From NCBI GenBank assembly GCA_964187785.1, contig OZ076409.1:1116001-1180000 (forward strand): a stretch of DNA of 64,000 nucleotides. The letters are read 5' to 3'. Under the pieces are notes generated by a model, which did no database searches, was not told the DNA's origin, and saw only the letters and a program-made list of their open reading frames with translations. This stretch comes from Amphiscolops sp. MND2022. Its lineage: Eukaryota. The translations under genes and the position numbers were made by a program. Below, piece by piece: positions 1,170 through 30,887 of the stretch. Within the stretch, counting starts at the first letter, position 1, and every line of letters starts with the position of its first letter.

Positions 1170-2822
1170 CTTGTAGGTCTGAGGCCCGGCACAGCTGATC
1201 TTGCACACGTCGCAGTAGTGCAGGGGACCCCGGGGGATGTAAGCAGCGCCAGAGGAGTTCTTGTCGCCCCCACCTCCACCCCTGGGTCCCTGGATCTCTT
1301 CTGGAAGCCAACCACGTGCGAATGGCCGCCACTGCTGCTGTTGTTGTGACCACTCCTCTCTGCACTGCCACTCCTTCTATCTCTGCGTCAGTCGTCAGAG
1401 CTCAGTGTCGTGCAATTAACACTATACCAACATTGTTAATTAACAAGCCTGTTTAAACTGTTTTTAATAGGCATGTACCGGAATTCCGGTCCGGCCGGAT
1501 TTCAAAAAAGTTCCGGTTCTGGCCGGAATCATCATTGGTTCCGGCCGAAACAAAATTCTCTTAAAAACAGCATTGTTTCCAAAATGTTTTAAATTGTTTC
1601 ATAAATTGATACAATTGACTAAAACAATTTCAGATTATGGTGAAGAGATAAAAGTTTTTCGCCAGTTTGTGGAAGAAGTCTGCTTCTTTTTTCTTCATAT
1701 ATGTTTCCGAATTCGGAGAACAGCCTTTCTGAATAAACAGATGACAGAGGTGATGTCAGAAATTTCTTCGCAACTTTTTTCATAGAACGTAAATGTAGGA
1801 TAGCACAATCAAAGTTCCGGTCCGGTTCCGGCCGGAACTGAAAAACGCATTCCGGTACATCCCTAGCTTAACACCAGTTTTTTAACAAGGTTATCAGAAT
1901 GTTGAAAATTCCATGGGTTCTAGTCAAAAACTGAAGTGTTTCAGATGACGAGGGTCGTGGTGTACGAACTGCAAAAACGAAATGGTCAACAATGCTGGAA
2001 TGATGGAAAGCCATTTTATTGCTTGCTCTAAAAAACTGGTTTATGTACCGCCAAATGAACAAAAGGTGATGGAATTACTTTGCGATAACTTAATTCCATC
2101 ACTTTTTGTTCATTTGGCGGTACATAAACCAGTTTTTTTAGAGCAAGCATTTGTTTTTGATATTTTTAACATAATTTACATGTTTTTTATTTTAACTGTT
2201 AAAAATATTTTAAACTAACAACTTAACAGCCCTGCTAACTACTGCACTAAGTTTATTCTAACGTTATTTTAGTGTTAAGGGTGAATCGTTAACAAAGCAT
2301 TTCGTAATACGAGCGAGAGAAATATTTCTCTCAGCCTTTCTTTAGTCTAATTTCTCAGTCAAAAGATCAATTCACGCACGATTTGCAGAAATTTTGAATG
2401 TTTTCGTCGGCATGAATATGCACAAAGTTCAACTACTAATCGATTAGCACCTCAGCAAAGTTTTGAAACATATTTTCGGAAAAAAATGACAAAAATGAGC
2501 CGTAAAATTTTGACTTTTTTGGACAAGTTTCGAACCTTTCGCTGACATAAGTATATTGATAAAGGATTTTAGACATTTTATATGAATGATCGATGATGTA
2601 TTTTCGACCTACAGTAGTATTTTCTTTTTAGATGAAAGAGTAGTACGACACTGTCTGTGTCTGGAAGAGGCCGCCACAGGGATGCTGTTGGAAGCGGAGG
2701 CAGAGGAAGACGAGACAGCACTGTAGGTGCCAGAGGACGAGCCAGATGAGTTGGTGCCGGGGGCATCTGGACCAGGGGTCAAAGTCTTGTTGAAACTGGA
2801 TGCACTGGACGAAGAGCCACTT
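1170..2822 (-). pseudogene. ZFR: Duplicate of ZFR exons 5 (2822-2652) and 6 (1382-1170); exon 6 copy has a -1 frameshift
   Basis: Near-identical to 7463-7290 and 6020-5807. The exon 5 copy is 3 nt shorter (in frame). The exon 6 copy is 213 nt vs 214 nt (C4 vs C5 run near 1279-1282), which could be a homopolymer sequencing error. Confidence 0.65.
1468..1865. mobile_element. MITE with CCGG-rich subterminal repeats (second copy ~6106-6503)
   Basis: TIR TAGGCATGTACCGGAAT / ATTCCGGTACATCCCTA; no clean TSD seen. Confidence 0.65.
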
Positions 2823-2922
2823 CTGTGACCAGCAGCACCACACAAACATACCCAGTGGATCATCCACTCACAATTCTCTGAATTCTCTGTGTGTGTCTTG
2901 CTATTTTCATACGACACTTATA

Positions 2923-3100
2923 CAGTTTAACTTCAGTATTACACACCTCGTTGGGAGCAAACGGTCAAGTACGTTATTCTGAAGTGTGTGTTATAAGCGA
3001 AAAAGACCAAATGATGAAAACCAAACACGGGGGCACAAAATATGTGCGTTATTCTGAAGGTTACACTATAGTGCACGTGTGTGATACTGAAGTTAAACTG
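2923..3100. mobile_element. Tc1/mariner-type MITE, absent from the duplicated copy
   Basis: TIR CAGTTTAACTTCAGTAT / ATACTGAAGTTAAACTG with TA TSD; empty site at ~7562 (CTTATACACC). Confidence 0.85.
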
Positions 3101-8800: not shown

Positions 8801-11800
8801 TCAACTAAATCGAAATTTTGTTCACCTAAATTAGAAACGGTGTATTTCATACTTAAGGGGGACACATTGGAAAATTAATCCCATTTTTGCATGTTATAAA
8901 TTTCCACTCAAAAGGTAACACCGTCCAAAACATTCAACGATTAGGCACCAATTTTCATCTCATTGCCAACTGGCTGCAAGCTTTGTGCCGTAGCAAGGCC
9001 AAATCTGAATCAAATTGACCCAATTCGTCATGCGAGGCGCAAAATTTAATAAACGGTTGATTTCGTATTTGTGTTAGCTGAGAACTGCGAACTCTAAATT
9101 TTATGCTCATACCATTCAAAAGTTGTTCGATGGGATTTAAGACAAAAATAGGCCCCTCCGGGGCTCAGTACTATTTCTGCCTTAATCTTTTTTTTTGAAA
9201 CAAAAAAATCATTAATAAAAGAATCATATCTGGAATACCAATACACTCTTGTTTAATGATTATTTAGCGCACAATTACATGTAATCACTGTACAAGTTTA
9301 CACTGCCTTTAATTTTTCTCGGACTAAAGAAGATATAACTACTAAGCGTAGACGAAGTTTCGCATTCGCATTTGAATGCAGGCGAAGCTCTCAACGAACG
9401 AATAATTAACACTCATTCGCTTCATCTCAATAACTCGGAGCAACGAAAGCACAATTACGAACATTCGCTCGCTTCATCTCAATGACGTCAGCATACGAAT
9501 GGATAATTACCACTCGCTCGTTCCATCGCACTAGAATTGAATTGTCTTCGGCAGCTCTCTCGCTTACACTCACTGCCGAACAAAATATCTGAATTATTCA
9601 GATCGTCCGAAAAATTGTTCTGAAAAAAAAGTAGACGTTTCCAGATTTCAATAATATTCCTGCTAAAGCAGAAATATTAATAAAATGTTTCACTGGAGTT
9701 TCAAACAAGCCGGTAACGGCATAAGTCGGCGCCATATCTAAGGCTCAAAAATAGCAAAAGGACTTCAAAGTGTCAAGTATTCTCTTCTACAGTACCCGAA
9801 AAACTAAAAAGTTGGACCGAACTGGCGCGCTAAAAGGGGAGACCCTTTCGGATTTTTTACCATTCATTCTGTTGCAAAATATCAAAAAAATGAAGGGGGA
9901 CCCTTTGGCTAAAAAATTCAAAAAAATCTCACAATGCTGAAAAAACAGAGACCCTTTAGTCTCGCCCGGTATTGTATGTTGCGCTGATAAAAAGGGTCAA
10001 CTCCTTTGCTCCTTTGGTTAAGTTCCTTGGGCCAAATGGTTCAATTTGACACATAAAATTTCGTAGAACTTTGTAGAACTATTGTGGTCACTACAGGTGT
10101 ATCGAAAAAAAATACTGACGAAAAGCCATGACTATAGTCGACTCTTTATGAAGAAAAGCGCCGACTAAAAACGAAGGGCGGAAAGTTTGTTTTTTTTTTT
10201 GGGGGGGGGGGGTGTTGTTTGAGAACTGGTTGGGTTTTGAGTAGTGAATTAGGTGTGTGTGTGTGGTGCCTGTTGTAGCGATCGCCTCCTCCTGCTCGGG
10301 AGCCGGAGTTGCTGCCTCGGGAGAAAGAGGCAGTGCCACTGTGCTCTGACGACGACGACGACGACTTGTGATGGAAGCTGCGACTGGAGGAGCTGTTGTT
10401 GCCGCCAGAGCCACTGCCACTCGAGGACCCAGACCCAGTCGCCGTAATTGTCGCAATCGCATTCGCACTTTTGTATGCTGAAACCACCATCAAGTGTTAC
10501 TCACCATTCACGTTGACTCACTTGTCTGTTTGGAAACTACCAAAAAAGCATTCCAAAGCCGCCGCCGCCACTATTTTGCTGGATGATTTAATGTTATAAA
10601 TTGTGAAACAGAAGTCCTTGTATCATACTCCTTATAATCAATCCACTCTTTCATCGATGCACTCGTCCAACACAACAACATCATCCACTAGAAAGAGGCT
10701 ACACTGAGGATGTGACAATGAGACAACACACCCCATCATACAAAACAACTCAACAGTTTTGAGAAACCTAAACCACATAGTTTTTAATGAGGTTTCATTG
10801 CATGTGAAAGCATTCTAAAAATTCACTTGCAGTTGCAGGCAACTTTTATAGCAGTCGCAAGACTTCAACTTGAAGACTGTTTTTCGCTGCTGGTGATTCC
10901 AATGGCCTAAAAATCTTCACAAGAGAAGAGCAGAGAGGTTTATTTCCCCAATTCCGCGGGGTGGGCGACTCCGAATAAGCAGCACTTCTGATTTTCTAAG
11001 TCGGCGCTCTTTCGGATACTAAAAAGATTCTCCCCAAAAAGATTCTCACACAGTCAAAGCGAATAAGTACTTGTGTGAACAATCCAAGCAACAGTGAAAC
11101 ACAGAGGCGAAGCGGTGCTTCGCAACACATGACGAAGACAACGATTTTAATATGCGTATATATATTATTTTAATCGCATGCGTATATATTCAACAGTTCA
11201 ACTTTGTTCAATAACGTCCCTATGGCACAGTGGTCAACACTCATGCCGTGCAATCGGGAGGCTGCAGGTTCGAATCTCTCAGGGGTTTTGGCTTTTGTCT
11301 AAAAGGCGCTCATTATGAAGTTGACTATTGTGGAAAAAAAAACTTTCTTAGCTGGACTGCAATGCACATTGACTTCGTCATGTGCAAAAATAACTTTTGT
11401 GTTTTTCATTCATATCTGCACGAGCAAGCTAGCAGTAAAAAACGATGCTTTTTAGACAGTTACAGTCAAACTCGGGTAAAAGAAACTCAGAGGGTGGTAA
11501 GAAAAGTGTTCCTTTTATCCATAGTTTCTTTTATAAGTTGTCCTATTAGAATCGTAGAATGTTTGTCTTGTGTAAAAGCGGAGGAGTGAAAACGTCTCTT
11601 ATATCCAAATGTTTCTTTTATCCGAATTCGACTGTATTAAGTGTTATTGTCGTCAAGTGTGAACTTGTCAAAGGATAGGGTTTGAGAGCAAGACTAACAG
11701 GAAGAGGAGCCGCCACTTCTGGAACTGTTGTACTGGTCGCCTGGCTGGTAGCCCACAGTGCCCCCGCCCCCGTAGCCAGAAGAGGACCCCCCAGAGGAGG

Positions 11801-14800
11801 AGGTAGCACCCACAGTCGGCTGCTGAGTCATCCCTGCTGCAGCCAGGTTCGTGGCAGCCCTGTCACCACATTCACCGGGTTGGGGGAATTGATAATTGAT
11901 AATAAGATCGTTATACAGACAACTGCAGTTAATACAGTCAACAGCAGTTCTTTAAACAGTAGCAGTAACTTGATGCTGTTTTTATTCTACTTCCTTTTTT
12001 GTATTTGTATGATTGCTCACTTTTTCAAACAGGGTTCGCATGTTTGAAACATGCCTTGTTTTAAACGCGTTTTAAACATGTTTTAAACAGTGTTTTAAAC
12101 ATAACGAAAACCTTCATTCTGCTCAATTGTTTTTCTTTTTTTTCAGATTGGACATGAGTACTCCAGTCACAACCACTGGTCGATCTGGTTTTGATCCCAA
12201 GTTCGGCAGACTTAGAACGCATATTCAGTAGCTTGGGGTTCGTCCACGATGAGACACGAAATCGACTATCCATTGAAAAAGCCAACAAACTTGCATTCTG
12301 TCTTCGATTGTTGCAGTTCATGTACTTATGTCGTTTAGTGTTAGAAGTATTTATGTGATTTATTTAGAGTTTTAAACATGTTTTAAACAAAAAAATTTTA
12401 TGTTTTAAACGTTTTAAACACACGATTTTTTCCAAATCTTGTTTTTTTTCCGAACCCTGTTTTCAAATTGATTCCTCTTGATTGAAAAGGAGTTATAGCT
12501 TATCTATCAACCACTGCAGAAGTATGTCTCACATAAACTAAATAGTAAATGGACGGAAATGAAAACTTACCACAGTCAACTCCGGATAATTCGCATCTTC
12601 GGTTAATTCGTCTGTATCTGAGACCCTTATCTCGCGACGACCAAAGTATTATCATCCACTTATTTCGTATTTCTCATTATTCGTACCATTTCATCCGGTC
12701 CCTAACCATACGAATTAGCCGGATACGAATTATCCTGATACCAATTAACCGGAGTTGACTGTAGTAAGTTTTAATTTCCATTCATTTACCATTTAGTTTA
12801 TGTGAGATATACTTCTGCAATGGGTGGTCGATACAAAACCCGTGACTCCTTTTCAATCAAGAGGAATCAATTTGCGAAAGTGAGCAATCATAGAAAAAAG
12901 GAAGTAGAATAAGAACAGCATCAAATTACTGCTACACTTACCGTTTCGAGAACTTTGTTACCTGAAGGTTTTGGGAAACGCAAAAACTTAAAAGGTCAAA
13001 AATTTCCCCATACATGTCATCAGTGCTGAAATTTTGACGAAAACTGCAAAAAAGCTTGAATTTCATATTTCAGCGAAATTGGCAAATTGAAATAGCGGTT
13101 TAGCGATTAGCCGGAAAAAATTAGCGATGTCAAAACCCTGTTTAAGTATATTTGGAATGAAGTCAGTGCAGTTTCACATGATTAATAGCCAACCCACCAA
13201 CCCGGTGTAGGCAGCGGCATACTGAGCGGGGTAAGAAGCGAAGGGCATGAGGGGTGATGCGGTCATGAACCCGAAGGCGGCTGCGGGGGGCATGGGCATG
13301 GCAAAGGCGGCTTGTGGGGTGCCAAGACCACCCACGGCTGCACTTTGGGCACCGGTCGCTGTCTGCTGTTGGGGCTGAAGCACCTGCTGCAGCGTCCACG
13401 TACAGTGCATTGACCTGACCTGACCTGACCTGACTTGACCTTCCATCCAATCAATCTACCCACCCTCTCAACTCAACCAGGTAGCGACAGTCCGAAAAGA
13501 AGAGAGTTTGGAATAACCAACAATCAGAATTCTCGAACTGAAGATATCCAAATAGAGACACTGACCGTGAATTTCATATCAAACACCTCAACCACGAAAG
13601 AGTACACGAAGGAGAAACACACGCAGAAACGAAACCGCAAGTGAGATGTAACGCAAAGTGTCCAAGGAACGTTTTGCCTTGGAGTTCTAATCCGGAAGGA
13701 ACAGAGCCTCTGACACCAAAGATTTGATATTTGAACGCGGCATAGTCACGCCAATCAAACCCAGTGGATGCAGCGGTTGCAAATTACCAGAGAGCTCGGG
13801 CTTGGAACAATATTTGAATTTATTTCGAAAAATTGTTAGGGTATAACAGAATTGCGAATTTTCAATGCATTTGTTTGGTAATATACTTTATTTCACAAAG
13901 CGATGTATTAAAAGGATTATTTAACTACGAAATAATACACCGTGGAATTTCTTAGACATAAATACTGCATCGAGAACTGATGCATCGACATCATGGAACG
14001 CCGTGAGAATCTTTTCTGTAGCGGGATCTTTTCTGTTAACCCACCCCCCCCCCCACAGTAAGCGCGGAAATTTTAATTCCCCACCACTATCAGCGATGAT
14101 TTTCAGTTGCAGTTAGAGTTATAAAATACTGCAATTTGATTAATTTGATTGGTTGTTACTATTAATTCAATGATGATTTCATTTGACCGCTTACCTGGGG
14201 GGAATTAAATTGGTAGGGGAAAATATCAACAGAAAATTAACAGGAAATATCCCTGTAGCGTCCACCTTCACGTAGGTCAAACAATCCATTGTCAATTGCA
14301 TCGATCGAGTGATGTTGTAACCGTCTATATATAAGACCAGTTGTCGAACAGATCAGTCGTAAGGTATTTGCTGACAATGGATCTCTAATAACTGTTATAT
14401 GGTGTAGAATGAGTTAGAAACCTAACAGTTTTCAGTTCTAATTTTTTTCAGTTCTTTCAGGTTTGAGATTGGCTAACTTAAATGTGGCAAACCATAGTTT
14501 AACTAGTTTGCTGTCACAACATACAGTAACTTGAGCTGTGTATTTTATATATATCGTATTCGTGGTATTACGAACAAGGTATTGAACTTCAACTAGAAGT
14601 CATCAACGTAATGTCTTTCAGAAGGTTTTTTGGAAACAAATAGTCACAGAAATGGTCTAGAGCAACTCAACTGAAACATCGTCAAAAACAATGTCAATTT
14701 TTGTGCCGAATAATTTGTGTAATTATACACAAGTCTTCAGTGATGGATTCTATTTTTAGAGAGGAAACAAGCTTTTCTGGCACAAGAGCTAATAATCCGA

Positions 14801-17800
14801 ATCTACAATTACATCGATAACATGAAAGCTCATTACAGTAAACCCTCAATTATCCGCCACCATCGGTCCAGCACGAATTATGGCGGATAAGTGAGAGTGG
14901 CGGTTAATCAAGGGAGCTTAGACACGAGGGTTTTAGCGAAATGTCCCCGTAGATTTATGGCGGTTGACCAAAGGTGGCGGATAATCGAGTGGCGGATAAT
15001 CGAGGGTTTACTGTATTACCAAACTGTCGTATTGAGTATTGGAGGAAATGGTCTTGACGAGTGGAAGGGAATACGAACTTTAGCTGCAGACGAGGTTACT
15101 TTTTTGTAACTTACACATGCAACATTTTGTTACATGCAATCATTAAAACAGTCAACCAAAAGCTTTTTACATTCCTAGATCTTAAGGTCGGAATACTGTT
15201 GGGAACGTATTTCATCGCATAACGTGAGCAATTTTTCAAAGGATAAGATTGTTTCTAACAGTCAACATTTCTTCACGTAAAAGATGCAATGCCGAGGCAA
15301 CTATAAATCGTCAAAATGCAAAATGTTTTGTAACAAAGTGACTTGACCGTTTCAAGTAGACGATGTATATCAGTGTCATTTATTGACATCCTTTTTTGTT
15401 ATAGGTCGCTAATCACATTTTTAATTCAATAGCTATGTTCACTGATAAAACAAGCCATGTTCATGCAAAATGGGGTAATTATGCGTTGAAACAGTTCGTT
15501 CGACAGCATCAAGGCACTGAACAACATTTTGTCAGTCAATGCTACTAGTGCGAAAATGCCATTTGACTTTAATGTACTCGGAGTTACGAAAAGCTCCGAC
15601 AGAAATGTTAGTGATGATCAAGTGCACCTAACTAACAACGGAGTAACAAATTTCACATCTGTTCCACTCAGACATTATCGAAGTGTTTGTTTAAAAAAGA
15701 ATATGGAAATATTCATACATTATTTTCAATAAATTCGAAAGTCACCTTAATTTTGGTAAAAAGTGATTGTTTAGCTAGTACTGATCGAATGTAGAAAACC
15801 ATTTTTACTGGTTTTCATTCTTCCTGTTGTGACTAGCTTTGTCTTAAGGGAGAGCAACTTGTTTTCGTGAAATGAAACTAGTATTTTTGTAGATTTAGAG
15901 CAACTGGCTTGCGAACGCTTGTCCCTGACTACATCACTGTGACTTCCAAGGACCTTTTGGCAGTGAAGGGACCTTGGTTTACTGCTGTGCATAATGAGTC
16001 TACTGGAGGCAAGTATTGCAAGACTAGCATCCGGGCGCAAGCTTTGGATCATTTCCACTAATCTTCGCAATTCGTGTTGAATATTACAGACCTCAACAGC
16101 GTGTATTGTTTTTTAATGTTCCCTGAGAGCATGAATCGGAACGAATGGAAATTGTGTAGAGAGCTGCGTTATCATTTGGCCGAACCTGGTGATGTGCTAA
16201 TTTAGCCTCCTTTCCGATGGAATGTCAAGGTGGTCCCTTGTGCATGGATGGGAAGGCGTTGACATCAGCCAGCGATTTGAAAAGGGGGAGTGGAGTTTTT
16301 GGAAGATTTAGCTTGAGCTCAGGTCAGGAATATGTAGAGGAGTCGATACAAAGGTATGGATTGGACAAATTGATTGATCGCATCCGGCAGAGATTGGAAA
16401 CGAGCCTTGAAAAAATACAGAAGTCTCGCGTCAAGCTCCGCGTCTGGTGTCCAATCAGTTGATTCGCCAAACAATGCTGTGTCATCTACTCTGAAGTGGT
16501 TCTCTGAGAGTGTTGTATTAGATCATCTTGAAACATTCAAATTATTGGATATGACTTGTCAAGCAGCTTTGAAAATCGTAATAAACGTAACGAAAACCAT
16601 GTCGAAGAAAGAAGTCGCGGCTCTCTAACATTAAACGAGCAACGACTTCTTCAATCGTAGTTGCTCCTGAACTACCTTATCCCGACTCGGAAGACGAAGA
16701 TGTTTACTCTTCTCCTTTCCGGTAGTAAGAGCACTTCGATAAAGTATCCTAAATCAATAAAATTATTGATCGTTGAATAGCGGAAGATTCCCTTGTGTTA
16801 TTCGATGAGTGTCATTCAGCAGTGATATAATGAGGATAAGCGTCATTTATTGAATGATACCCAGCCTTCTGCTCAAGATTGTAAAATGATGAAATCCGGA
16901 GATGATAGTAACGGTGAATGAGTAACAAAAGCTGGTAAGTTGCATTTCAGAAATTGAAGAAGGATCAGATAGGGATTGCCTGCTCGTTCTGATCGAACCA
17001 AAGCATCAGAATTTCGAAATAACAAATAAAATAAACGCAAAAGCTGATAAATCTACTTCTGTTTCTCGTTTCTGTTCTATTAGTCTGTTTTTCTCTCAGA
17101 ATTGATTATAATTTTTTTATTGTCACTTTCGCTGTTCTGGTGGGCTTCAATTTCTACATCGGTAATCATGTGGGACAGGTAAGTGATTGCTTGAATGCAA
17201 TGACAGAGGAATCCAGGTAAGAAAATACACAATTGAAGAATTGAAGGAAAAAAAAAAGATTTCGGAGTCAAAAGGGGGTAAGTCCTTGAAATGTCGAAAT
17301 TTCGATAAATCCAAAAATTCGTTCAAACATTTTGTAGTCAAGCTTCTTTGGGTGTCGACAGAGACCATGCTAAAACTGTATTGAAACACAACGTAAATCG
17401 AGAAGTATTTTGTCGCCTACTGAGGAATTGTGCTACTTATGACACATGTGAACAACAAAAAACTAAAAAATCTCGAAAAAACTGTAGAAATCAAAAAATC
17501 CCGCTCAACCATTTTGTGTGTAAATCGATGAGTTTTGTTTCGTCAATTCTTGCTTTCCCGATAGGCTCAAGAAATTGTGAAATTTTATTTTTCTCGAATA
17601 ACGTTAGAAATTCAGAAATTGGCTTCAACCAATTGATGTAGGATCATAACAGGTATATGCACGCGCAATTTCATTGCTTTGGAGTAACTAGCGTGAAATC
17701 GAGAAAAAATCGACTTCCTGGAGATATCGGGCTTGGAAATTTATGATGAATTGGAAATTGCTGCTGGTTCAATTGGTTATTTGGCCATTGAATCGACTGC

Positions 17801-20800
17801 GATGCACCCACAGGAAGCTTTCTGAGCTTTACTATGGGACGTATGATATGACCAGATGCTGTTCCGAGTTTCGCAACTTTATTTTTATCGTCGTTTCCAG
17901 AGTACAACTGCTCGATTCTCGCCAATTTCCATCGCAAAGGGGGCATGTTGTCCTCTGCTGACAAAACCAGGTGGCCAGCTGGAAACTAGGACCCGATTGA
18001 AGCCATCAATTGCGTATTTGTAGGGTCACTATGTAATCACGATACCATGCCTTCCAAAAGTGACCTCCTCGATGCTTTAAGTAGTTTGAATCTTTGTCCG
18101 ATATCAAGTTTATCATCAGATTGACGAGCGTGCAGAGTTGCACAGAAGAAAATGAGCTAGAGTATTCGGCTAAAGGTCATTCGGTTCGCTGGACATGCTG
18201 ACAGTGGTCGAGAATTCAGAATTCCTTCTATTTGAATTACTCGTGTGTTGAGCTCTTCGAAAGTTTCTGCGCAAATGACGCTTCATGCGCTCCACTGCCG
18301 CTTCTCATAATCTTCCAAAATGCGGTGTCCTTCGAGGAATCATTTTTCATTCGATCATTTCTTGGGATATGTAACTTCCGATTGAATTCTGTTCTTTTCC
18401 AAAACCATGTCGAAGAAAGAAGTCGCGGCTAACATTAAACGAGCAACGACTTCTTCAATCGTAGTTGCTCCTGAACTACCTTATCCCGACTCGGAAGACG
18501 AAGATGTTTACTCTTCTCCTTTCCGGTAGTAAGAGCACTTCGATAAAGTATCCTAAATCAATAAAATTATTGATCGTTGAATAGCGGAAGATTCCCTTGT
18601 GTTATTCGATGAGTGTCATTCAGCAGTGATATAATGAGGATAAGCGTCATTTATTGAATGATACCCAGCCTTCTGCTCAAGATTGTAAAATGATGAAATC
18701 CGGAGATGATAGTAACGGTGAATGAGTAACAAAAGCTGGTAAGTTGCATTTCAGAAATTGAAGAAGGATCAGATAGGGATTGCCTGCTCGTTCTGATCGA
18801 ACCAAAGCATCAGAATTTCGAAATAACAAATAAAATAAACGCAAAAGCTGATAAATCTACTTCTGTTTCTCGTTTCTGTTCTATTAGTCTGTTTTTCTCT
18901 CAGAATTGATTATAATTTTTTTATTGTCACTTTCGCTGTTCTGGTGGGCTTCAATTTCTACATCGGTAATCATGTGGGACAGGTAAGTGATTGCTTGAAT
19001 GCAATGACAGAGGAATCCAGGTAAGAAAATACACAATTGAAGAATTGAAGGAAAAAAAAGATTTCGGAGTCAAAAGGGGGTAAGTCCTTGAAATGTCGAA
19101 ATTTCGATAAATCCAAAAATTCGTTCAAACATTTTGTAGTCAAGCTTCTTTGGGTGTCGACAGAGACCATGCTAAAACTGTATTGAAACACAACGTAAAT
19201 CGAGAAGTATTTTGTCGCCTACTGAGGAATTGTGCTACTTATGACACATGTGAACAACAAAAAACTAAAAATCTCGAAAAAACTGTAGAAATCAAAAAAT
19301 CCCGCTCAACCATTTTGTGTGTAAATCGATGATTTTTGTTTCGTCAATTCTTGCTTTCCCGATAGGCTCAAGAAATTGTGAAATTTTATTTTTCTCGAAT
19401 AACGTTAGAAATTCAGAAATTGGCTTCAACCAATTGATGTAGGATCATAACAGGTATATGCACGCGCAATTTCATTGCTTTGGAGTAACTAGCGTGAAAT
19501 CGAGAAAAAATCGACTTCCTGGAGATATCGGGCTTGGAAATTTATGATGAATTGGAAATTGCTGCTGGTTCAATTGGTTATTTGGCCATTGAATCGGCTG
19601 CGATGCACCCACAGGAAGCTTTCTGAGCTTTACTATGGGACGTATGATATGACCAGATGCTGTTCCGAGTTTCGCAACTTTATTTTTATCGTCGTTTCCA
19701 GAGTACAACTGCTCGATTCTCGCCAATTTCCATCGCAAAGGGGGCATGTTGTCCTCTGCTGACAAAACCAGGTGGCCAGCTGGAAACTAGGACCCGATTG
19801 AAGCCATCAATTGCGTATTTTAGGGTCACTATGTAATCACGATACCATGCCTTCGAAAAGTGACCTCTTCGATGCTTTAAGTAGTTTGAATCTTTGTCCG
19901 ATATCAAGTTTATCATCAGATTGACGAGCGTGCAGAGTTGCACAGAAGAAAATGAGCTAGAGTATTCGGCTAAAGGTCATTCGGTTCGCTGGACATGCTG
20001 ACAGTGGTCGAGAATTCAGAATTCCTTCTATTTGAATTACTCGTGTGTTGAGCTCTTCGAAAGTTTCTGCGCAAATGACGCTTCATGCGCTCCACTGCCG
20101 CTTCTCATAATCTTCCAAAATGCGGTGTCCTTCGAGGAATCATTTTTCATTCGATCATTTCTTGGGATATGTAACTTCCGATTGAATTCTGTTCTTTTCC
20201 AAAACCATGTCGAAGAAAGAAGTCGCGGCTAACATTAAACGAGCAACGACTTCTTCAATCGTAGTTGCTCCTGAACTACCTTATCCCGACTCGGAAGACG
20301 AAGATGTTTACTCTTCTCCTTTCCGGTAGTAAGAGCACTTCGATAAAGTATCCTAAATCAATAAAATTATTGATCGTTGAATAGCGGAAGATTCCCTTGT
20401 GTTATTCGATGAGTGTCATTCAGCAGTGATATAATGAGGATAAGCGTCATTTATTGAATGATACCCAGCCTTCTGCTCAAGATTGTAAAATGATGAAATC
20501 CGGAGATGATAGTAACGGTGAATGAGTAACAAAAGCTGGTAAGTTGCATTTCAGAAATTGAAGAAGGATCAGATAGGGATTGCCTGCTCGTTCTGATCGA
20601 ACCAAAGCATCAGAATTTCGAAATAACAAATAAAATAAACGCAAAAGCTGATAAATCTACTTCTGTTTCTCGTTTCTGTTCTATTAGTCTGTTTTTCTCT
20701 CAGAATTGATTATAATTTTTTTATTGTCACTTTCGCTGTTCTGGTGGGCTTCAATTTCTACATCGGTAATCATGTGGGACAGGTAAGTGATTGCTTGAAT

Positions 20801-23800
20801 GCAATGACAGAGGAATCCAGGTAAGAAAATACACAATTGAAGAATTGAAGGAAAAAAAAGATTTCGGAGTCAAAAGGGGGTAAGTCCTTGAAATGTCGAA
20901 ATTTCGATAAATCCAAAAATTCGTTCAAACATTTTGTAGTCAAGCTTCTTTGGGTGTCGACAGAGACCATGCTAAAACTGTATTGAAACACAACGTAAAT
21001 CGAGAAGTATTTTGTCGCCTACTGAGGAATTGTGCTACTTATGACACATGTGAACAACAAAAAACTAAAAATCTCGAAAAAACTGTAGAAATCAAAAAAT
21101 CCCGCTCAACCATTTTGTGTGTAAATCGATGATTTTTGTTTCGTCAATTCTTGCTTTCCCGATAGGCTCAAGAAATTGTGAAATTTTATTTTTCTCGAAT
21201 AACGTTAGAAATTCAGAAATTGGCTTCAACCAATTGATGTAGGATCATAACAGGTATATGCACGCGCAATTTCATTGCTTTGGAGTAACTAGCGTGAAAT
21301 CGAGAAAAAATCGACTTCCTGGAGATATCGGGCTTGGAAATTTATGATGAATTGGAAATTGCTGCTGGTTCAATTGGTTATTTGGCCATTGAATCGGCTG
21401 CGATGCACCCACAGGAAGCTTTCTGAGCTTTACTATGGGACGTATGATATGACCAGATGCTGTTCCGAGTTTCGCAACTTTATTTTTATCGTCGTTTCCA
21501 GAGTACAACTGCTCGATTCTCGCCAATTTCCATCGCAAAGGGGGCATGTTGTCCTCTGCTGACAAAACCAGGTGGCCAGCTGGAAACTAGGACCCGATTG
21601 AAGCCATCAATTGCGTATTTGTAGGGTCACTATGTAATCACGATACCATGCCTTCCAAAAGTGACCTCTTCGATGCTTTAAGTAGTTTGAATCTTTGTCC
21701 GATATCAAGTTTATCATCAGATTGACGAGCGTGCAGAGTTGCACAGAAGAAAATGGGCTAGAGTATTCGGCTAAAGGTCATTCGGTTCGCTGGACATGCT
21801 GACAGTGGTCGAGAATTCAGAATTCCTTCTATTTGAATTACTAGTGTGTTGAGCTCTTCGAAAGTTTCTGCGCAAATGACGCTTCATGCGCTCCACTGCC
21901 GCTTCTCAGAATCTTCCAAAATGCGGTGTCCTTCGAGGAATCATTTTTCATTCGATCATTTCTTGGGATATGTAACTTCCGATTGAATTCTGTTCGTTTC
22001 CAAGGCGAGAAGCTCTTTCACATTGATGTCATTGCTAGCTCCAATTAATTTTTTTTCGTTGTTGCTGATTATTTTTCTAGGTACACCGCGTCTGGAGATG
22101 AATCGTTTGATGACAGAAACGCATGATTCCTCCGTTAGATCTGTTACCGTTTCAAAGTGAAGAGCTTTATTCACAAATCAAACGAAAATGGCTATGTACG
22201 TTTTAACTCCAGGTTTAGTCAAATTGGTCCTGCCAAATCCAAGGCACATGTCTCGAAAGGGTTTGCAGGCGTTGTCCGTTCAGCTGGTAAATCAGCCATT
22301 ATTGATATGGTATTTTATTCTCGAAACGATTACATTTGATGCAGTGTTTGATCATCTTTTTCACAAAAACTTTGGCATTTGGAGTTCACAGTCAGCGTAG
22401 CTTTATGAAAGTGATGAAGTATGAGAACTGCCAGTAACGAAACTTGACTGACAAGCAATTGAAACTTTTGCAATTCTCTTAATTGTCCCCGAGATAATCG
22501 TCCACCCAGTCGACTGGTCTCGCTCTCGTCACCGAAGAATGGAGTCACGTTGAGAAATTTGTTCTGTTTTGACAGTTCTTTGGCCGATTTCAAGTTTTGA
22601 TATTCAACTGCATAGTATTCAAGTTGGTGTTCCTGAATTGTTTTCCGAGATGATCTAGCTCGAACTGTCGTCTGGATTCTGAATGCAACTTCTTGGTCAA
22701 AACATGAACCCAAACAAAGTCAGTTGAAGATATGTCTACCTCCAGAGCTTGAATTGCCATCGAATTCGCTTCGAAAGCGACAATGAGTTTCCGCAATTCT
22801 GACGCTGATTCACCTTGGAGTGGTTTCAAACTGAAAATCGCTGACAAATGAGTATTGACGATGAGTCTTTGGTTGTCATATTGAGCGATCAAAATCTTCA
22901 AGGCTATTTTGCAGTTTGTGTTTGACAAAGGTAAATACGAAATGAGTTGTGAAGCATCGTCCACAAGAGAGAACTTGAGATACTTGAATTTTTCTATATT
23001 CGGTAGTGTTGTGGAACCATTCACAGATGTCGTGAATTGTTCAAAAAATAGCGTCCAATTCTGATACTCTCCATCAAAACTTGCCAGATTGAATTTTGCA
23101 ATCTTGAGGTTACTTGAAGAATTGCTTACCATTGTAGAAGTAACATTTTCAAGACAGGGACCACAATTGTTGAATTGTTCCAAAAACTTGACTTTTCTAA
23201 AGCTCAAGTGATATTTTACAATTCGCAGTGATGAGCTCTTCTTGTACCTCTTCGTGTGTAATAGGGGTTTCCTCCAGAATTGCTGCATTCAGAAGTTTAG
23301 CGTCGCTTAGTTTTTTCTCAAACAAGTTTGACTTCCAAATCGGCTATTTCATGGTCTGACACTTTCTTGGTTGTTCATGATTGGTTGTATTATGGTTAAC
23401 ATCTTAGTTATTAATCCTGTGATTGCAGAACGAGATCGCCGCTTGAGTTGTGAAGTGTTTTTCCATCGTACATTTCCAAGACATTTCTGATTGTTCCCGG
23501 ATCGCTATGCACCAATATAAGTTGACTAGCTTTGTCTTAAGTGAGAGCAAATTGTTTTTGTGAAATGAAACGTATTATTTTTGTACATTCACAACAACTG
23601 ACTTGCGAAGAAAGAAGAGTGAAAATAAATACGTGAACAAGGTTATAATGTCAATGAATAGCACGTGTCTTTAACTAGTGCGATATAAAACTCAATGGAA
23701 AGAATATTACAAAGTTTGAATTCACAAGTGTTTTTGTATGCAATGCATCAACACTACCTCATTTATCCAGAAATGGGAGATGTTGCAAGCGTATTGGAGA

Positions 23801-26800
23801 GTTTATGCTAAAGATTGTTGTTAGTTCATGTTCACATTTTTTGCAGATTGTAACAGATGTCCAATGCTAACAGAAGGAACAAGAACTTCAAGAGAGTGAG
23901 ATGAGCAAAAACTCTTGCAATTGGTTTTGTTTTCCTCCAAATATTATTTATTTCGTTGAATTGTTCAACTACAATTTGGGTAACATCCTAATTACAATGT
24001 TGGGTACAAGATACAATTCTAAAATTTCACAGTTGCAATACAACACAACTTGCTCGTTTTGAAATTTTAATCTTGGAAGTAACAATACTAATCAAAGTCG
24101 TTCAACATTTCAAGCATATTCTAATAGTTGTGACAGTCGGTTTAAATCATGATGTAGGTCATGTGATCAAATCGATAGTCTCATGTTAAACGAACTAAAC
24201 AATTTCAATCAACCAAAAGTCACCTGCTCTAGCTCATTACAACGATGGAATTTTTGATAAGACACGATAAAATCGTGAATAACAGGTAACTTTCTCTTTT
24301 AGTTTCAGAAAAAAACTGCGCGAAATTTGGTCAAGCTCGGGTTTTGAAGACAATTTATCTAGTTTCAATCTTTTTTCAATGATTCAAGATCCCAAAAATC
24401 ACTGCCCAATTATTCCCCGCAATTCAATTATTCAGTCTTTGGATCGGATTGCGACCCAATTATTCTAAAACATCATCAATAATAAAGATTAGATTGAACT
24501 GCTGAATTTCTTATGAATAAAATTGAATGCATATGTAATGATGCAAAATTTTATAAGGTGGTAGTCTTAAAAATCTTTGAAAATGACCCAAGAACAATGG
24601 GTGATGGAAACGATAGCGAGACCACCCAAGCAGAGGATGTTACAGGTGTTACAAAACGAAGTGATTGTGTCTATATGCCATTTAAATACCATATACGGCT
24701 GTATCAAAGGTCTCGACAATAAAATAATATCTCAAAGAGGCCCTCGACAACCCTTTTATTGCCTTGACCTTTATTTCACTGTCGTGTAACTAATACAAAT
24801 AGTACATCATTGCAATTCAGATTGTTTAGCCACTGTGTGATGTCTTGCGTATTGATTTCAATCATTGAAACCACTGTCTTTATCATTTCTTGTTATTGTT
24901 AATGAAATTACATGATTGAACACTGTGAACATTGAATATCCATCGTGATTGGATTGCGTACTTTAAAAGAAACATGGAATTAAAAACAAACTTGAGATGG
25001 GGGGTTTCACATTCTTAAAGAGTCAACCAACCTTGAATGAGTGTCAACCAAAGTTTGATTAACTTTTTTTTCAATATTGGAAATAATCTAATTTTCAGCA
25101 ATTGAACGCCGAAATGTAGAGAAACCACAATGGCTCGTGTATCTGTTTTTTAAAAAAAATTTTGTCGTCCATGGCATGATAATTGGTGTTATTCACGAAA
25201 AATTACAATTGAGAAATGCGAATTTGATGTGTGAGACACCACCGCTAATACCCTTTATTCACAAAATCCACATACAGAACAGATTCTTTAGAAATAGCGG
25301 AAACCGTCCACGTGTAGGTTGATTTCAGACGGCATAGCGACAACTCATATCACGCGACAACTCGTATCAATTTGAAAAAGCGACAACTCATATCAAGCGA
25401 CATCTCATAACAGGCGACAACTCGTATCAATTTGAAAAAGCGACAACTCATATCAAGCGACATCTCATAACAGGCGACAACTCGTATCAATTTGAAAAAG
25501 CGACAACTCATATCAAGCGACATCTCATATCAGGCGACAACTCGTATCAATTTGAAAAAGCGACAACTCATACCAATTAGGAAAAAGCGACAACTCATAT
25601 CAGGTTTGCCAATAGATTACAATACTTGTATTTCAAGAAAAATTTAATAAATGCAATTAAAAATTCTAGTTTATTTATAATTATTTCGCCATTCAGGCAC
25701 TCTACCCACCACAACTATTTTCTCCAAAACCATTTGAACGAAGGTGTGATGAGGAAATGATTATCCATGACACTGATATTTACGATGAAAGCTTGTTACT
25801 ATTTCTAATAATTGCTTGTCAATTATGTAATTTTCTCTAATTATCTAATTAATAAAGATTTAAATTTTCTGATGAGTTTGATTGATATTGGTTATCGCTT
25901 GATATGAGTTGTCGCTTTTTCAAATTGATATGAGTTGTCGCCCGATATGAGATGTCGCTTGATATGAGTTGTCGCCGTACGATTTCAGACTATTGCGAAC
26001 TTAACGGATTACTTCACACAATTTGGAAAGTGTTCACCTAGATGCGGATCATGTGGATATAACGAAGAGACAGCGCAGCACCTTTAATACATGTCTGCAT
26101 ATAATATCTGCATTCTTTGCAAAGAATTGAGAGAAAATAGGAACGATGGAAGATCCCACTTGGAAGCGCATCAAAACAACAACATTGCCGAATATTATTT
26201 TCCGCCCCCACAAATTTTTCATAATCTTATCGCAATTATCATATTCTGTGTTGCGTTTTCTCCAAGTTTTGCAAATCTCCACTTTTTACTGCACTCATTT
26301 AATATCCTGGTGCTTAGAAAAAGAGCTGCCATTTGTACCAGCACGCTATATCCGAACTTTCAAGGTTGTATACGAAGTAATTGTGTTTTACTGAGGAGGA
26401 AGCGTAGGTTCGAAAATATTGCGCTATACAGTGATGACCAGTTTAATTCTTTTAACGGATAAAATAACGGATTTTGGTTTTTCAGAAATTTAACGGATCT
26501 GTTGAGCTGATCTACATGTCCAGAAAAAATTTTACCTGGTATAATAAATTGGTAAGATGACAACAAAAATAACAGGAACAATATTTATCAAAATCAAACA
26601 AGAATTAATTAAAAGAAAGTTATTCCGCCTAATTCCATTGTAAACTTTGTCGCAAATATTGCATTTATAATTGTCCGTAAATTGTAAATAAGTGAATTTC
26701 TTCTCAATGAGTTCTCGCTCAACTGTTTGTAAACGAGGCATCTTTAAAGATGCTGTTTTTGATTTAATCTAGGCCTGAATAGGCAGTAAGTAAATATATA

Positions 26801-27970
26801 AGGCAGCTACTAGACCGTTGGCTGTTATCAGATGTAGTGGTACAACGAATAACAGCAAGTTTACACAACTTATACTACTGTCACAGCTAGTTGTTTACAC
26901 AACTGTCAGTCGGTCCGATCCTACCATGCTCATGCATACGGATACCAGTCAGTCCAATCCTACCCCCTAGCAGATTACATTACTATCAGACCGACTATTA
27001 GATCCGACTATACAAACATACAAATATCCGAATTCATCTTTCAGACAACAATGACTACTGTATCAGATGTAATTTAGATGTATGCTGAATTAAATGTGAA
27101 GACTTATCCGTTGAACAAATAAAACGGAATTTATAACAGCATTACGTTAAACCCGTGAACTTTTAAATAATAGATAATATAACGTATCCGTTAATATTCC
27201 GTTAAACGTATTGCAAAAACTGGTCATCGCTGGCGCTATATCCGAATTTTGACGTTACATCCGAAGTGAATTGCGTTTTACAACGAGGTTAATTTTCGAT
27301 TAAGCTCATATTGTTAGCTCATTGAAGGCGGAAAATCTCCCGGTGCATAGAGGGCGGCTCGTATTTAGGAAATAGATTGCCTTACCAACTCGTTAGCAAG
27401 TGAAATTGAGCAAGTTGTCATTGTGGTCCAACGGAACAGGCCAGTAAGTAAGTAGAACACAGAATTCCATAAATTTATAAAGAAACTCGTCATGAAAGAT
27501 GGCAGTGTACCAATAAATTGAATCTTATACTAGGCAACCAAGACTTCTTCCCACATGGAGACTAGAATCTAAAATCCACCCAATTCAAATCGTAATCAAG
27601 TGCTGGGTCCATCCTATTTTAAAGTGATACACCACTTTTAATTTTGATTTGAATTGCTGATGTTTCGATTCAAGTTTCCTTGAGCAGTGAGTTCCAAACG
27701 GAAATGATGCGCTAGAAAATGGAAACTTTCATATTTAAGAAATGGCTAAGAAGTTGAAAAACAAATGTGCAACGAAATCCTCCTCAAAAATTATCCTTAT
27801 TACGTCATTCAAAGGTCAATGCACTGGACCTGTGACTGGGGCTGTTGGGCGACTCGGTACAAGTTGGCCATGTTGGCAGCAGCCACTGCAGCCGCCGCAG
27901 CAGCAGCCGAATTGGGGATGCCAGACATCTGGTTGGGGCCAGCGGCGAAGTTCATGTTGAAGAAGCTCAT
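5807..27970 (-). CDS. ZFR: ZFR/Zn72D-like zinc-finger RNA-binding protein, 5' part (exons 1-6; gene continues left of the window)
   Basis: Phase-consistent manual model: exons 27970-27830, 13386-13202, 11859-11699, 10477-10270, 7463-7290, 6020-5807. Q/A/Y/S/G-rich N-terminus (MSFFNMNF...YPAQYAAAY...) followed by LHYCDVCKISCAGPQTYK, which I recognise as the first U1/matrin-type finger of ZFR. Confidence 0.85.
7977..8745. mobile_element. Mutator/Foldback-like element with inverted arrays of a 15-bp TCATTTCACCCCACG-type unit
   Basis: 9-bp TSD TGTGATAGC at 7968-7976 and 8746-8754; empty site at ~3416-3424 in the other copy; the arrays at the two ends are in opposite orientation. Confidence 0.85.
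9703..10171 (-). mobile_element. Helentron/HINE-like non-autonomous element (dispersed family)
   Basis: On the minus strand: T-run, then AGTCGGCGC subterminal IR, later GCGCCGACT, a short GC hairpin (GCCGTTACCGGC) and TTT. Related copies ~31111-31590, 36315-36632, 39000-39570, 43156-43797, 46270-46545(+), 54526-55114(+). Confidence 0.6.
11216..11285 (+). other. tRNA-derived sequence (SINE head or tRNA pseudogene)
   Basis: A-box TGGCACAGTGG and B-box GGTTCGAATC at tRNA-like spacing; the cloverleaf stems are degenerate. Confidence 0.5.
11463..11634. mobile_element. Tc1/mariner/pogo-type MITE
   Basis: TA-CAGTCAAACTCGGGTAAAAGAAAC ... GTTTCTTTTATCCGAATTCGACTG-TA. Confidence 0.75.
11957..12935. 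mobile_element. Long-TIR palindromic element carrying a nested hAT MITE (12030-12459) and a Tc1-type MITE (~12573-12761)
   Basis: Arms 11957-12029 plus 12460-12550 are inverted relative to ~12780-12935. Nested CAGGGTTCG...CGAACCCTG has an 8-bp TSD TTTTCAAA. Central CAGTCAACTCCGG...CCGGAGTTGACTG. Confidence 0.75.
14836..15013. mobile_element. Tc1/mariner-type MITE
   Basis: TIR CAGTAAACCCTCAATTATCCGCCAC / GTGGCGGATAATCGAGGGTTTACTG; TA TSD. Confidence 0.85.
15826..23610 (-). mobile_element. Decayed BEL/Pao LTR retrotransposon inside ZFR intron 1
   Basis: Gag DUF1759-like segment (FDGEYQNWTLFFEQF...KFKYLK, 22590-23288); integrase core remnants (ALHFETVTDLT...FISRRGVP); DUF5641-like tail (PLRWKLARIEQLYSGND...RPIVKL). 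LTR-like homology 15826-15915 vs 23521-23610; PBS-like TGGTGCAT next to the 5' LTR; purine tract at ~16204-16215. No protease, RT or RNase H visible. Confidence 0.88.
16593..22000. repeat. Tandem array of three ~1.8 kb units (starts 16593, 18401, 20201)
   Basis: AAAACCATGTCGAAGAAAGAAGTCGCGG recurs at ~1800 bp spacing; near-identical ORFs are repeated three times. Confidence 0.97.
25331..25980. mobile_element. Mutator/Foldback-like element with GCGACAACTCATATCA subterminal repeats (60-bp higher-order unit)
   Basis: Flanking direct repeat GATTTCAGAC at 25321-25330 and 25981-25990; the arrays at the two ends are inverted. Confidence 0.85.
26429..27232 (-). mobile_element. Internally deleted hAT transposon retaining a BED-finger-like N-terminal fragment
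   Basis: TIR CAGTGATGACCAGTTT / AAACTGGTCATCGCTG; 8-bp TSD GCGCTATA; ORF 26532-26741 contains YKCNICDKVY. Confidence 0.8.
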
Positions 27971-30887
27971 CTTGCAAGGCAACTCACTCAATTAAACACT
28001 CCACTCTCTAGACCCCCTTCTTCTCTCCAAACAATGTCACAACAGCTTACACACAGGGTGGGTGGTTATCACAAAAGCAACCAACGATAGCAACGTTTGA
28101 GGTTCCTTGTACTCAACAACTGATTGAAAAAAACTTTTGAAAAACTTATAAAAGACAGTTAGTTATGCATTGATTTTGCACGAGAAACCACAAAAGTTTC
28201 CCAATTTCAGCACTCTTGTAAGTATGGCAGCAAAAGCAAAATTCGGAAAAGTGTGAAATTTTGAGCAGGAACAATGTTTTCCTGGTAAGATGTGAAAATG
28301 CCCACCCTGCTGAGGAAAAAGATAAGTTAGGAAGTGATTGAATCAATTGATAACTCTATTCAATTACAAGAGAACATTTGTCTCAAGGTAGAAAGTTAAG
28401 CAGGGTTGATTGAACAGGTACAAAATGGTATTGTCTGGCGTGCGAGCGATGGCGCTATTCTGCAGCAGCGATTTGCTTTGAGTTGAAAGCGTTTTAAAAA
28501 GCGGCGGTTTCAAATCAACTTGAAGCTTCAAATAGCGCCACGGTCACGATTAAAGAATGAAAGTGTCAGCACAGACAAACCAGAAGAAGTCCACAGAATC
28601 TGAAATTCACAAAAAGATCTGCATTAATCGGCCAGGCACTGGGTGCTGAAAACACAAAGGTGTCTGTCTGTAAATCATTAAAGGTCCGTCCATCCTCTAA
28701 AGATTAACGAATCTGCTGCAACTGATTCGATTAATGAGCCTGGAAAACATTTATGACGTACGTTATTAATGCTTCACACAGTGCCTGCGACAGTTTTTCA
28801 ATCTAAGAATTGCTTCATCTCGAGATTACAGTTGAGTTGAGTGACTTGAAACCCACGTTGTTAGGTCACAAGACGTGAATCTTGAAACTAAGAGAGAACG
28901 ATAAAGAAGCAAAGAATATTTGTGACCTCATTGGAATACAAAGTCAAGCCAAAGAAAAGTACTGCTGAAAAACTGTACTTATTTGTACACAATCCTCCAA
29001 AATTAATCTACAATTGTGAAAGTATCAGTATTCCAATGAGTCTCCGATAGAAATACTCTTTGACACAATCATTAGCATAAACACCTGGTCGTTTAATTAA
29101 CTCTAACCATTTATCTACCAATCATATCTTCGCTCGACTTCGGCAACCATTTTTGTTTCGTTTTCCTTTTCAATGAAGACATTGAAGACCTTCTTACTTA
29201 CTGGTGGCATAAGTGAAACCTACAGTTGGTAAAGGTGCTATGCGATGAGATGGAAAGAACAACAAAAAAACTCCAAATTAAAACATCAACAATTGAGCAA
29301 CTCTATTACCAAGTGGAGAGTTATTAGGGTACTATGCCCAGCAGGTATTTCAACTTAAGGTAGTATGTATAGGAAGAATTCACAGCAACACAGAAAATCT
29401 CCACTCAATAATAGCAAGCAAAAGTTGCCGCAACTAGGCCAAACTAATTGAAATCCGCGCTTCTTTTTGAACATTTTACAATTGAGATTCTTTTGGTCGA
29501 ACTTCAAAAACTGTCATACAGTTCCAATTTTTACAATACGCCAGCCTTTCCTCGAGGTTTCAAACATTGTCCGCCAGACAAATCTCCTCACAAAAAAGTA
29601 CCCATTTATTGAACGACCTCTGAGAAAGAACGCGGCGGCTAATGTTCTCTTGAAATTCACTGGTGTGTTCGCTTTCGCCACCGAAAACTGCTGACATTAG
29701 CAGAGGATTTGCGAAATTTGTCGGAATTCACGGTTCATTAACTGTAAGGTTAATCAGCAACAGGGACCGGAAAATTTACCTAAACCAAGGGGTTTCCCAA
29801 ATTATTTTTCACCAATATCGCCGCCGATAATATTTTGACTCAATTCACGTAAAAATTTCATTCATTGGCGACATGATGTATTCACAGATTTCCTTGATTG
29901 TTTTTCAGTTTCCCGACGCAGGGTTGAACCTTGAATGTGTTTTGACCTTTTTTACGTTCTTAATGACCTTTGAAGGCGCCTATTTGGCGTTTATAATGAC
30001 CTAAAATTCCGATCCCTGATGAGTAATCACAACAACAAATTTGGATTCCAGAAGTAACTCCGATTTGCATGAAGAGAAAGGGTTTGTTAACTTCATGTAA
30101 CTTCTAACGTAGGATTGAATTGACCCATTAACATGACATAATAAAAACTAGGCAAAAATGGACCATTACCTCATCTGTTTCATTTTTCTCACACTTCCAA
30201 AGACTTTTTCCAATAAACCCTGTCAGCTAAAGGAGCTTCCATGAAAAACACACACGTTATATATGTGTGACATCCAGTCAAATGATTTACAAGATTATAA
30301 TAAACTGTATCTGCAAAATTGGTCATATAGAAATAACAAATTAGACCAGGTTCTAGCTAAAAATATCACAATTCTACCAAAAAAAATGAACGAGCGGTCG
30401 TCATAAATAGTGAAGTATAATTATGAAATTAAAGTATATCTAAGTTTAGCAACAGTGATGATTTAATGATAACTATAGTACTTTCTCATAGAAAATATTG
30501 CTTCTTGTATATAATTTCTATAACTACAGATTGGGTATTAATGATTGCAAAATTCAATTGAAATGGCTTGAAATGTGACACTTATAAGGAGGTCAGGTCA
30601 ACTGAGAGGTGTAGTGTAGAATTGCACCAAATATTGCAGCTAGGTCAGGTGAGGTCATTGTGTGTCAAGATAGATAAAGCGCCGCATTGTGTGCCAAATA
30701 AAGCAATGATACAAAAAGTAAACTAACAGCATGGATGGTGCTCACACCTACATGAGCAAAATTGAAGCATTTAGTTAGCTCACAACAGAATTTATTTAGA
30801 AGCACAGATGAGTTAGCTTAACTACACCATCGATACATGCAAATGGTTTTTCAACACCGAAGTTAAAAAAGTTGGCAGCTGATTTTT

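Follow-up and report, generated by a model that had tools for sequence, protein, structure and literature searches.

The window analysed here is a 64 kb stretch of the genome of Amphiscolops sp. MND2022 (assembly GCA_964187785.1, contig OZ076409.1, positions 1,116,001 to 1,180,000), and all positions given below are those of the whole window. It carries, on the minus strand, a ZFR-like gene whose putative first intron is bracketed by an inverted repeat, which an earlier note on this DNA had described as a 17-nt clasp closing a 14.4 kb intron (Table 1). The downstream exons of the gene encode ZFR-type zinc fingers and the start of a DZF region, i.e., the arrangement of U1-like C2H2 zinc fingers followed by a DZF domain that marks the ZFR family. 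A tblastn search with ZFR proteins recovered three zinc-finger exons and the DZF start downstream, the DNA examined ending within the DZF region. The exon at L018:7146-7385 matched 1051 proteins at E ≤ 0.001, and the named ones among the matches listed were mostly ZFR.

To assess the putative first coding exon, a codon-usage frame test was trained on 2437 codons from four long open reading frames (ORFs) of the window. Exon 1 scored +16.7 bits in the predicted frame versus -18.5 and -10.8 bits in the other sense frames, which makes it as coding-like as ZFR exons 2 to 4 (16.2, 11.2, and 9.6 bits). In a ranking of the gene-strand ORFs from 28100 to 13100, those of exon 1 and exon 2 were the two most coding-like (17.9 and 17.8 bits), and all the remaining ones were AT-rich transposon ORFs. 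No further GC-rich coding-like ORF of at least 25 codons was found inside intron 1 on this strand, although exons of fewer than 25 codons are still possible. The 23 in-frame codons immediately 5' of the inferred acceptor AG scored -5.3 bits, i.e., non-coding-like. The reading frame of exon 1 stops six codons beyond the proposed donor, so exon 1 must be spliced onward, and a junction from GT (27829) to AG (13387), or to the next CAG at 13384-13386, connects both exon frames in phase 0. A cis intron between 27829 and 13387 is the most economical reading, and codon usage, ORF ranking, and the phase-0 GT...AG junction uphold, at the level of sequence, the gene model on which the earlier note had relied. 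Exon 1 is single copy in the genome, and neither a second haplotype nor a paralogue of exon 1 or exon 2 was found in the assembly. In an exhaustive protein search, the exon 2 peptide had one match, P0241, a genomic ORF call (MEGQ...) rather than a transcript product, which forms a cluster of one member; a 41-nt stretch of exon 2 had no match in one scan of metagenome contigs.

The donor of the putative intron, CAG/GTCCAG (the slash marks the splice site), is very weak: it agrees with the U1-complementary consensus, MAG/GTRAGT, at -3 to +2 only, as the poor U1 match remarked on earlier had implied. A U12-type donor was rejected, since GTCCAG does not fit one either. The donors of introns 2 and 3 read GTTGGT and GTTAGT, respectively. 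No pyrimidine tract was found within the last 60 nt of intron 1.

Table 1. Features of the putative intron 1 of the ZFR-like gene and of its borders (window positions; the slash marks a splice site).
Feature	Position	Strand	Details and basis
Putative first coding exon, ZFR-like gene	27830..27970	-	ATG 27970-27968; 47 codons, MSFF...QPQSQ; codon-usage test
Putative intron 1, GT...AG, phase 0	13387..27829	-	14,443 nt; sole in-frame junction at helix base
Exon 2, ZFR-like gene (QVLQPQ...AAAYTG)	13202..13386	-	Ends at donor GTTGGT
Inferred acceptor AG 13388-13387 and second CAG 13386-13384, forming tandem CAGCAG	13384..13388	-	Sequence
5' arm, CAG/GTCCAGTGCATTGACCT	27813..27832	-	Donor GT 27829-27828; 17-mer first noted 27813-27829; window, repeat, and genome searches
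3' arm, AGGTCAATGCACTGTACGTG	13397..13416	-	Pairs 18/20 with 5' arm; translation unchanged in second assembly's ORF call P0241
Microsatellite (TGACC)6.2 on + strand	13411..13441		Gene strand (GGTCA)n / TCAGG-type; several TCAG/G decoy AGs just upstream of 3' arm
Truncated, rearranged BEL/Pao-type long terminal repeat (LTR) retroelement	15830..23754	-	Pfam scan, repeat and genome comparisons
gag-like DUF1759 of BEL/Pao relic	22590-23288	-	Pfam
1.8 kb unit with integrase C-terminus (DUF5641), three copies	~16625-21918	-	Repeat search, Pfam
LTR remnants of BEL/Pao relic	23523-23609 and 15830-15915	-	88.5% identity over 87 nt
Foldback-type dispersed repeat, 17/26/60-nt tandem units, long inverted arms	25336..25976		Copies elsewhere 88-94% identical
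Young dispersed repeat, 5' part of intron	26429..27233		Copies elsewhere 92-94% identical

A 20-nt inverted repeat brackets the whole 14.4 kb putative intron 1 of this single-copy gene; it is real and far beyond chance. The intron opens with GTCCAGTGCATTGACCT (27829-27813, minus strand), and the 16/17 complement AGGTCAATGCACTGTAC lies at 13416-13400, both as originally described; a repeat search lengthens the arms to 20 nt with 18 positions paired, taking in the last CAG of exon 1. Relative to the intron, the arms occupy +1 to +17 (extended, -3 to +17) and -29 to -13 (extended, -30 to -11). The order at the 3' end, in gene sense, is AGGTCAATGCACTGTAC, GTGGACGCTGC, AG (13388-13387), and CAGGTGCTTCAG..., the last in the frame QVLQPQ.... 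The spacing of 13 nt between arm and acceptor given in the earlier note is right if the AG itself is counted; the gap between the two is 11 nt. The (TCAGG)n run with decoy AGs that it had placed at the 3' arm is present as the microsatellite of Table 1, which overlaps the inner 6 nt of that arm. Both arms thus sit 0-13 nt from the boundaries of the two best coding-like ORFs of the strand.

Within the 1.07 Gb genome, the 17-mer has a single exact match. With up to three mismatches, the whole 64 kb contain two sites, which are the arms themselves (0.09 expected; at least two in 0 of 100 shuffles), and the search for better partners proposed earlier accordingly returned none. Among the matches listed (25 of the 38 inverted pairs in 13000-28200), the clasp alone has more than 7 kb between its arms. 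Membership of the 17-mer in a repeat family was considered and rejected, a one-mismatch variant, GTCCAGTGCATTTACCT, lying inside an unrelated repeat; the other near matches are satellite, tandem units, or unrelated sequences.

Next, the stability and specificity of the duplex predicted for the two arms were evaluated. The 20-nt arms alone give -28 kcal/mol, and -45.4 kcal/mol is reached when the windows are widened to 66 by 81 nt. Pairing of the intron's first 30 nt with its last 60 nt yields -33.4 kcal/mol, compared with -14.6 ± 3.4 kcal/mol for shuffled sequences, none of which reached this value (0/2000; 0/1000 in a repeat). In a scan of the pre-mRNA from 28100 to 13300 (14.8 kb), the arms were mutually best partners, at -29.6 and -28.6 kcal/mol; the best non-self alternatives, at -19.5 and -19.3 kcal/mol, were about 10 kcal/mol weaker. 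Complementarity in the 18 nt outside the arms is at chance level (1448 of 5000 shuffles as good) and in the 18 nt inside them marginal (331 of 5000), and no extension of the helix into exon 1 or into the last 10 nt of the intron was seen beyond chance. On its own, the 5' arm folds into an unremarkable local hairpin of -9.2 kcal/mol, and 191 of 200 shuffles folded more stably. As controls from this gene, introns 2 and 3 have ends that pair no better than shuffled ones (237 and 914 of 1000 shuffles, respectively, did as well), which leaves the clasp in one of the three introns tested. The locus therefore has two of the features looked for in a bridging helix, namely complementary segments near both splice sites and a duplex far stabler than chance without a better competitor, and the predicted helix is physically plausible and specific. 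In intron 2, a GGGTTGG near the 5' end (13201-13188) is complementary to CCAACCC (11883-11877), about 20 nt before the acceptor; the energy of this duplex is within chance, by the shuffles just given.

Intron 1 is composed largely of repeats. The "whole LTR element" attributed to it does not stand: the BEL/Pao copy is a truncated relic, in which Pfam matches among 40 selected intron ORFs of at least 60 aa were confined to DUF1759 and DUF5641; protease, reverse transcriptase, RNase H, and integrase core had none. Other genomic copies of the element contain about 3 kb that this one lacks, and the only LTR sequence found is the 87-nt pair. A further repeat ends at about 27765, and 27766-27832 is unique. 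The three tandem 1.8 kb units (16625-21918) are 99-100% identical, which indicates that their amplification is much younger than the BEL/Pao element.

A 15-mer taken from the arm, when searched against the genome, recovered TACAGTGCATTGACA many times, as the ends of a transposon family with terminal inverted repeats (TIRs). The 21-nt end of this family, CATTACAGTGCAT(A/T)GACAAGC, has 2792 genome matches with up to three mismatches versus 4 in the control. The family, represented by loci L020-L034 and L049-L054 of genome G000, comprises copies of 399-1196 bp that resemble miniature inverted-repeat transposable elements (MITEs) and an element of about 18.4 kb (e.g., L049+L050 positions 201-18623). 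A 2-bp target duplication flanks six of the seven complete copies (TG/TG, AC/AC, TG/TG, GA/GA, GT/GT, and TT/TT), the exception being GT/AT. The 18.4 kb element has 11 ORFs of 150 aa or more; their sole Pfam match was a SET domain, and no transposase was recognised. Separately, at L041 (G000:C12:10554810-10562761), a satellite with a repeat unit of about 27 nt (...ACCATACAGTGCATGGACTCATGGTTG...) forms a long array that has a CAGTGCAT core in common with the TIR family, by chance or by common descent.

The clasp can be compared with several known systems. In zebrafish, complementary AC and GT repeats at the two ends of an intron force its splice sites to pair and make U2AF2 dispensable, according to the accessible text of PMC4691745, which also cites yeast cases of pairing between the 5' splice site and the branchpoint. 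Like these (AC)m-(GT)n introns (Lin et al.), the ZFR-like intron has complementary segments at both of its ends and a predicted stable helix, and its acceptor, as in the U2AF2-independent class, has no pyrimidine tract. In contrast, its arms are a unique 20-mer rather than simple repeats, span 14.4 kb, overlap the splice site on the 5' side, and form a single case (one of three introns) known from sequence alone.

Transposon-derived introns offer a second comparison, drawn from the accessible portions of the reports on introners and on the MITE-derived introns of Fritillaria borealis (PMC11282704; Gozashti et al. 2022, PMC9860276). The ZFR-like intron shares with these the TIR-like inverted repeats at its ends and a GT inside the 5' repeat. 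It differs from introners, as characterised there, in having no target-site duplication, sister copies, internal family similarity, or frame restoration; moreover, introners are short and multi-copy, whereas this intron is a 14.4 kb single case. With the nonconventional introns of euglenids (PMC11282704), it has in common a TIR-based end pairing, the absence of a pyrimidine tract, and CAG at +4 to +6. Those introns, as far as the same text describes them, have borders other than GT/AG and leave the transcript as circles once conventional splicing is over. In the ZFR-like gene, by contrast, a GT...AG pair forms the sole in-frame junction, no partner CTG occupies -8 to -6, and the host is an animal.

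Conserved long-range pairings in human pre-mRNAs choose splice partners across kilobases. The docking/selector pairing of Drosophila Dscam, cited in the accessible text of PMC4691745, likewise selects splice partners by base pairing over a kilobase range, as the clasp would. The pairings in Dscam and in human transcripts are supported by conservation, covariation, and mutagenesis and concern mostly alternative exons, whereas the ZFR-like case is one constitutive-looking intron known from a single genome.

We hypothesize, tentatively, that the helix forms in the pre-mRNA and helps the splicing of intron 1, a reading that we regard as quite possible, short of probable. The arms would most likely pair once the 3' arm is transcribed. 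U1, bound minutes before the 3' arm is made, would hold -3 to +6 of the weak donor CAG/GTCCAG, and the remaining 11 nt of the 5' arm (+7 to +17) would zip to the 3' arm, closing the transposon-filled intron into a loop and leaving about 11 nt between the donor and the first AG past the helix. Such a bridge could offset both the weak donor and the absent pyrimidine tract, and it would leave the TCAG/G decoys on the loop side, out of play. The tethering might also bias the acceptor toward cis-splicing over capture by a spliced leader (SL). The broader proposal, that in an animal trans-splicing a third of its genes a TIR-like 18-bp clasp keeps the 14 kb, transposon-swollen intron cis-spliced by tethering a donor too weak for U1 to an acceptor with no pyrimidine tract, that it replaces U2AF-type recognition and shields the acceptor from the SL, and that such transposon-end clasps are a recurrent and hitherto undescribed way for acoels to tolerate intron bloat, strikes us as improbable.

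Several observations, set out here together with the explanations they favor, weigh against such a role. The 5' arm spans the 5' splice site itself (-3 to +17), so that the helix, if fully formed, would compete with U1 and U6 pairing; to our knowledge, the bridging elements of yeast and zebrafish lie beside a splice site and not on it. That the complementarity is a chance match picked from a long sequence might be argued from the many places to look and from an acceptor partly inferred from the arm position, but we consider it very improbable indeed: against the 0.09 sites expected at up to three mismatches in 64 kb the observed partner has a single mismatch, the duplex energy was reached in none of the two sets of shuffles, simple arithmetic puts a correctly oriented match with at most one mismatch, at any place in the intron, at about 4e-5, and the limits that ORFs and codon usage set on the exon ends are independent of the repeat. 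It is more plausible, if still somewhat unlikely, that the arms are a structural relic without a splicing role, either old DNA-transposon TIRs related to the CATTACAGTGCAT(A/T)GACAAGC family or a small inverted duplication, the interior having later been overrun by BEL/Pao and other repeats; splicing would then be ordinary and the RNA helix neutral or mildly harmful. The arm core, TACAGTGCATTGAC, is the terminal core of this abundant family, with 14 contiguous bases in common with the family TIR in the 3' arm and 12 in the 5' arm, in the same orientation and with the same CA start, and the complementarity ends sharply after 20 nt. By a rough estimate, the chance of an arm matching some TIR end is about 0.001-0.05, low enough to make the resemblance a real lead, and it suggests a mutational origin of the complementarity rather than selection. 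The family's range from MITEs to an 18.4 kb element and the repeat-rich interior of the intron fit the same picture. The arms differ at 2 of 20 positions, where about 2.3 differences would be expected under neutrality at the 11.5% divergence of the LTR remnants; this is no sign of constraint and fits neutral decay, although with such small numbers, and assuming arms at least as old as the LTRs, it is evidence neither for nor against selective maintenance. However, the ZFR arms are flanked on the + strand by TC and TG, with no 2-bp target duplication like that of the family, and they have one extra base relative to the family TIR. Neither blastn nor tblastx detected similarity between intron 1 and the 18.4 kb element, and the 14-mer is all that the intron has in common with the MITEs; the sequence adjoining the arms (64 nt and more than 150 nt) is unique in the genome, where no further copy of this arm type was found. 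In every register tried, reconstruction of the empty site by hand separates the exon frames by 8, 10, or 17 nt, never a multiple of three, which excludes simple insertion into a continuous exon by the introner route. Insertion into an older intron would leave that intron a length of only about 10-19 nt, and euglenid-style excision exactly at the repeat borders was rejected because it gave out-of-frame products in both registers tried. As it has neither the target duplication nor the internal similarity of a family copy, is single copy, and restores no frame when removed, the segment is not classed here as a member of the TIR family, and the arms could descend from a diverged TIR, from a small inverted duplication, or from stepwise selection. 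Nor does a relic give any reason for both ends sitting within 13 nt of exon boundaries.

The gene model itself may be wrong, which we think unlikely: exon 1 would not be cis-spliced to 13386, and instead an SL would be trans-spliced near the exon 2 acceptor (the upstream sequence being an outron), other sites would be used, or small exons would intervene. In Symsagittifera roscoffensis, whose 1.1 Gb genome consists of more than 60% repeats, mostly LTR elements, 30.2% of genes are SL trans-spliced, as given in the accessible text of PMC9911081, and at such a frequency exon 2 could receive a leader instead. The 32-nt SL sequence of that species has 2107 matches in the present genome with up to two mismatches versus 0 in the control; from this count the genome, that of an acoel, was attributed to S. 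roscoffensis or a very close relative. The very weak donor and the acceptor without a pyrimidine tract, placed in a tandem CAGCAG, point the same way, and so does the exon 1 peptide, which had no match at E ≤ 0.01 to longer proteins in a collection without the window's own two ORF sequences. The conserved N-terminal motif of ZFR (NYFGF-type, MAxNNYFGF...) was found neither in exon 1 nor elsewhere in the window by a hidden Markov model (HMM) built from 22 ZFR N-termini and run on 1637 window ORFs (best E 1.9, the exon 1 ORF being outside the top-ranked ones); since the HMM found nothing significant, we infer the ZFR start at exon 1 from its position, strand, composition, and codon usage. On the other side, exon 1 scores in its predicted frame like the confirmed ZFR exons, has an ATG start and a frame that closes soon after the donor and requires splicing onward, and is separated from exon 2, on the same strand, by repeats that contain no other coding-like ORF, while the in-frame stretch 5' of the acceptor is not coding-like.

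Together, these comparisons make the clasp a candidate addition to the known intron-bridging helices, possibly one with a link to transposon ends. No acoel case of an intron-bridging helix was found in a limited literature search directed at acoels, and one may already be in print. If the helix acts as proposed, it would be a clear animal example, beyond vertebrates and flies, of RNA structure pairing splice sites over more than 10 kb, and would represent one way for an essential gene to go on splicing a first intron that transposons have invaded on a massive scale. In a bilaterian, moreover, the TIR-like arms would connect transposon ends with splice-site pairing. Acceptors in this organism are contested between cis- and trans-splicing, and repeats make up more than 60% of the genome, to judge from the accessible text of PMC9911081. 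The clasp is so far a single, well-defined, and easily testable candidate rather than a demonstrated mechanism.

Beyond intron 1, the ZFR-like gene is affected by a tandem duplication of about 2.9 kb, 99.0% identical, within a unit of about 4.6 kb (1-2924 / 4626-7565). It includes two ZFR exons, the S/G-rich one and the first zinc-finger exon (1062-1376 and 5705-6025), and represents a genuine duplication of exons or else an artefact of the assembly. The SL matches are scattered over all large contigs, an unusually high number of SL genes or pseudogenes. A minus-strand multi-exon gene (36607-38010 and 32495-35778) has ORFs that, by eye only, suggest a receptor of the adhesion or methuselah-like type, and a further ORF, of 858 aa, lies at 48540-51116; parts of both served as training sequence for the codon test. 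A neighbouring Atg9 gene, made up of a single exon, shares 72% identity with its counterpart in the acoel Convolutriloba macropyga and 100%, 95%, and 89% with other records. A 1.4 kb segment with the 5' end of Atg9 is duplicated at 99.4% identity about 3.2 kb upstream (58986-60400 / 62174-63588), which creates a second, truncated Atg9 N-terminal ORF (62115-62669).

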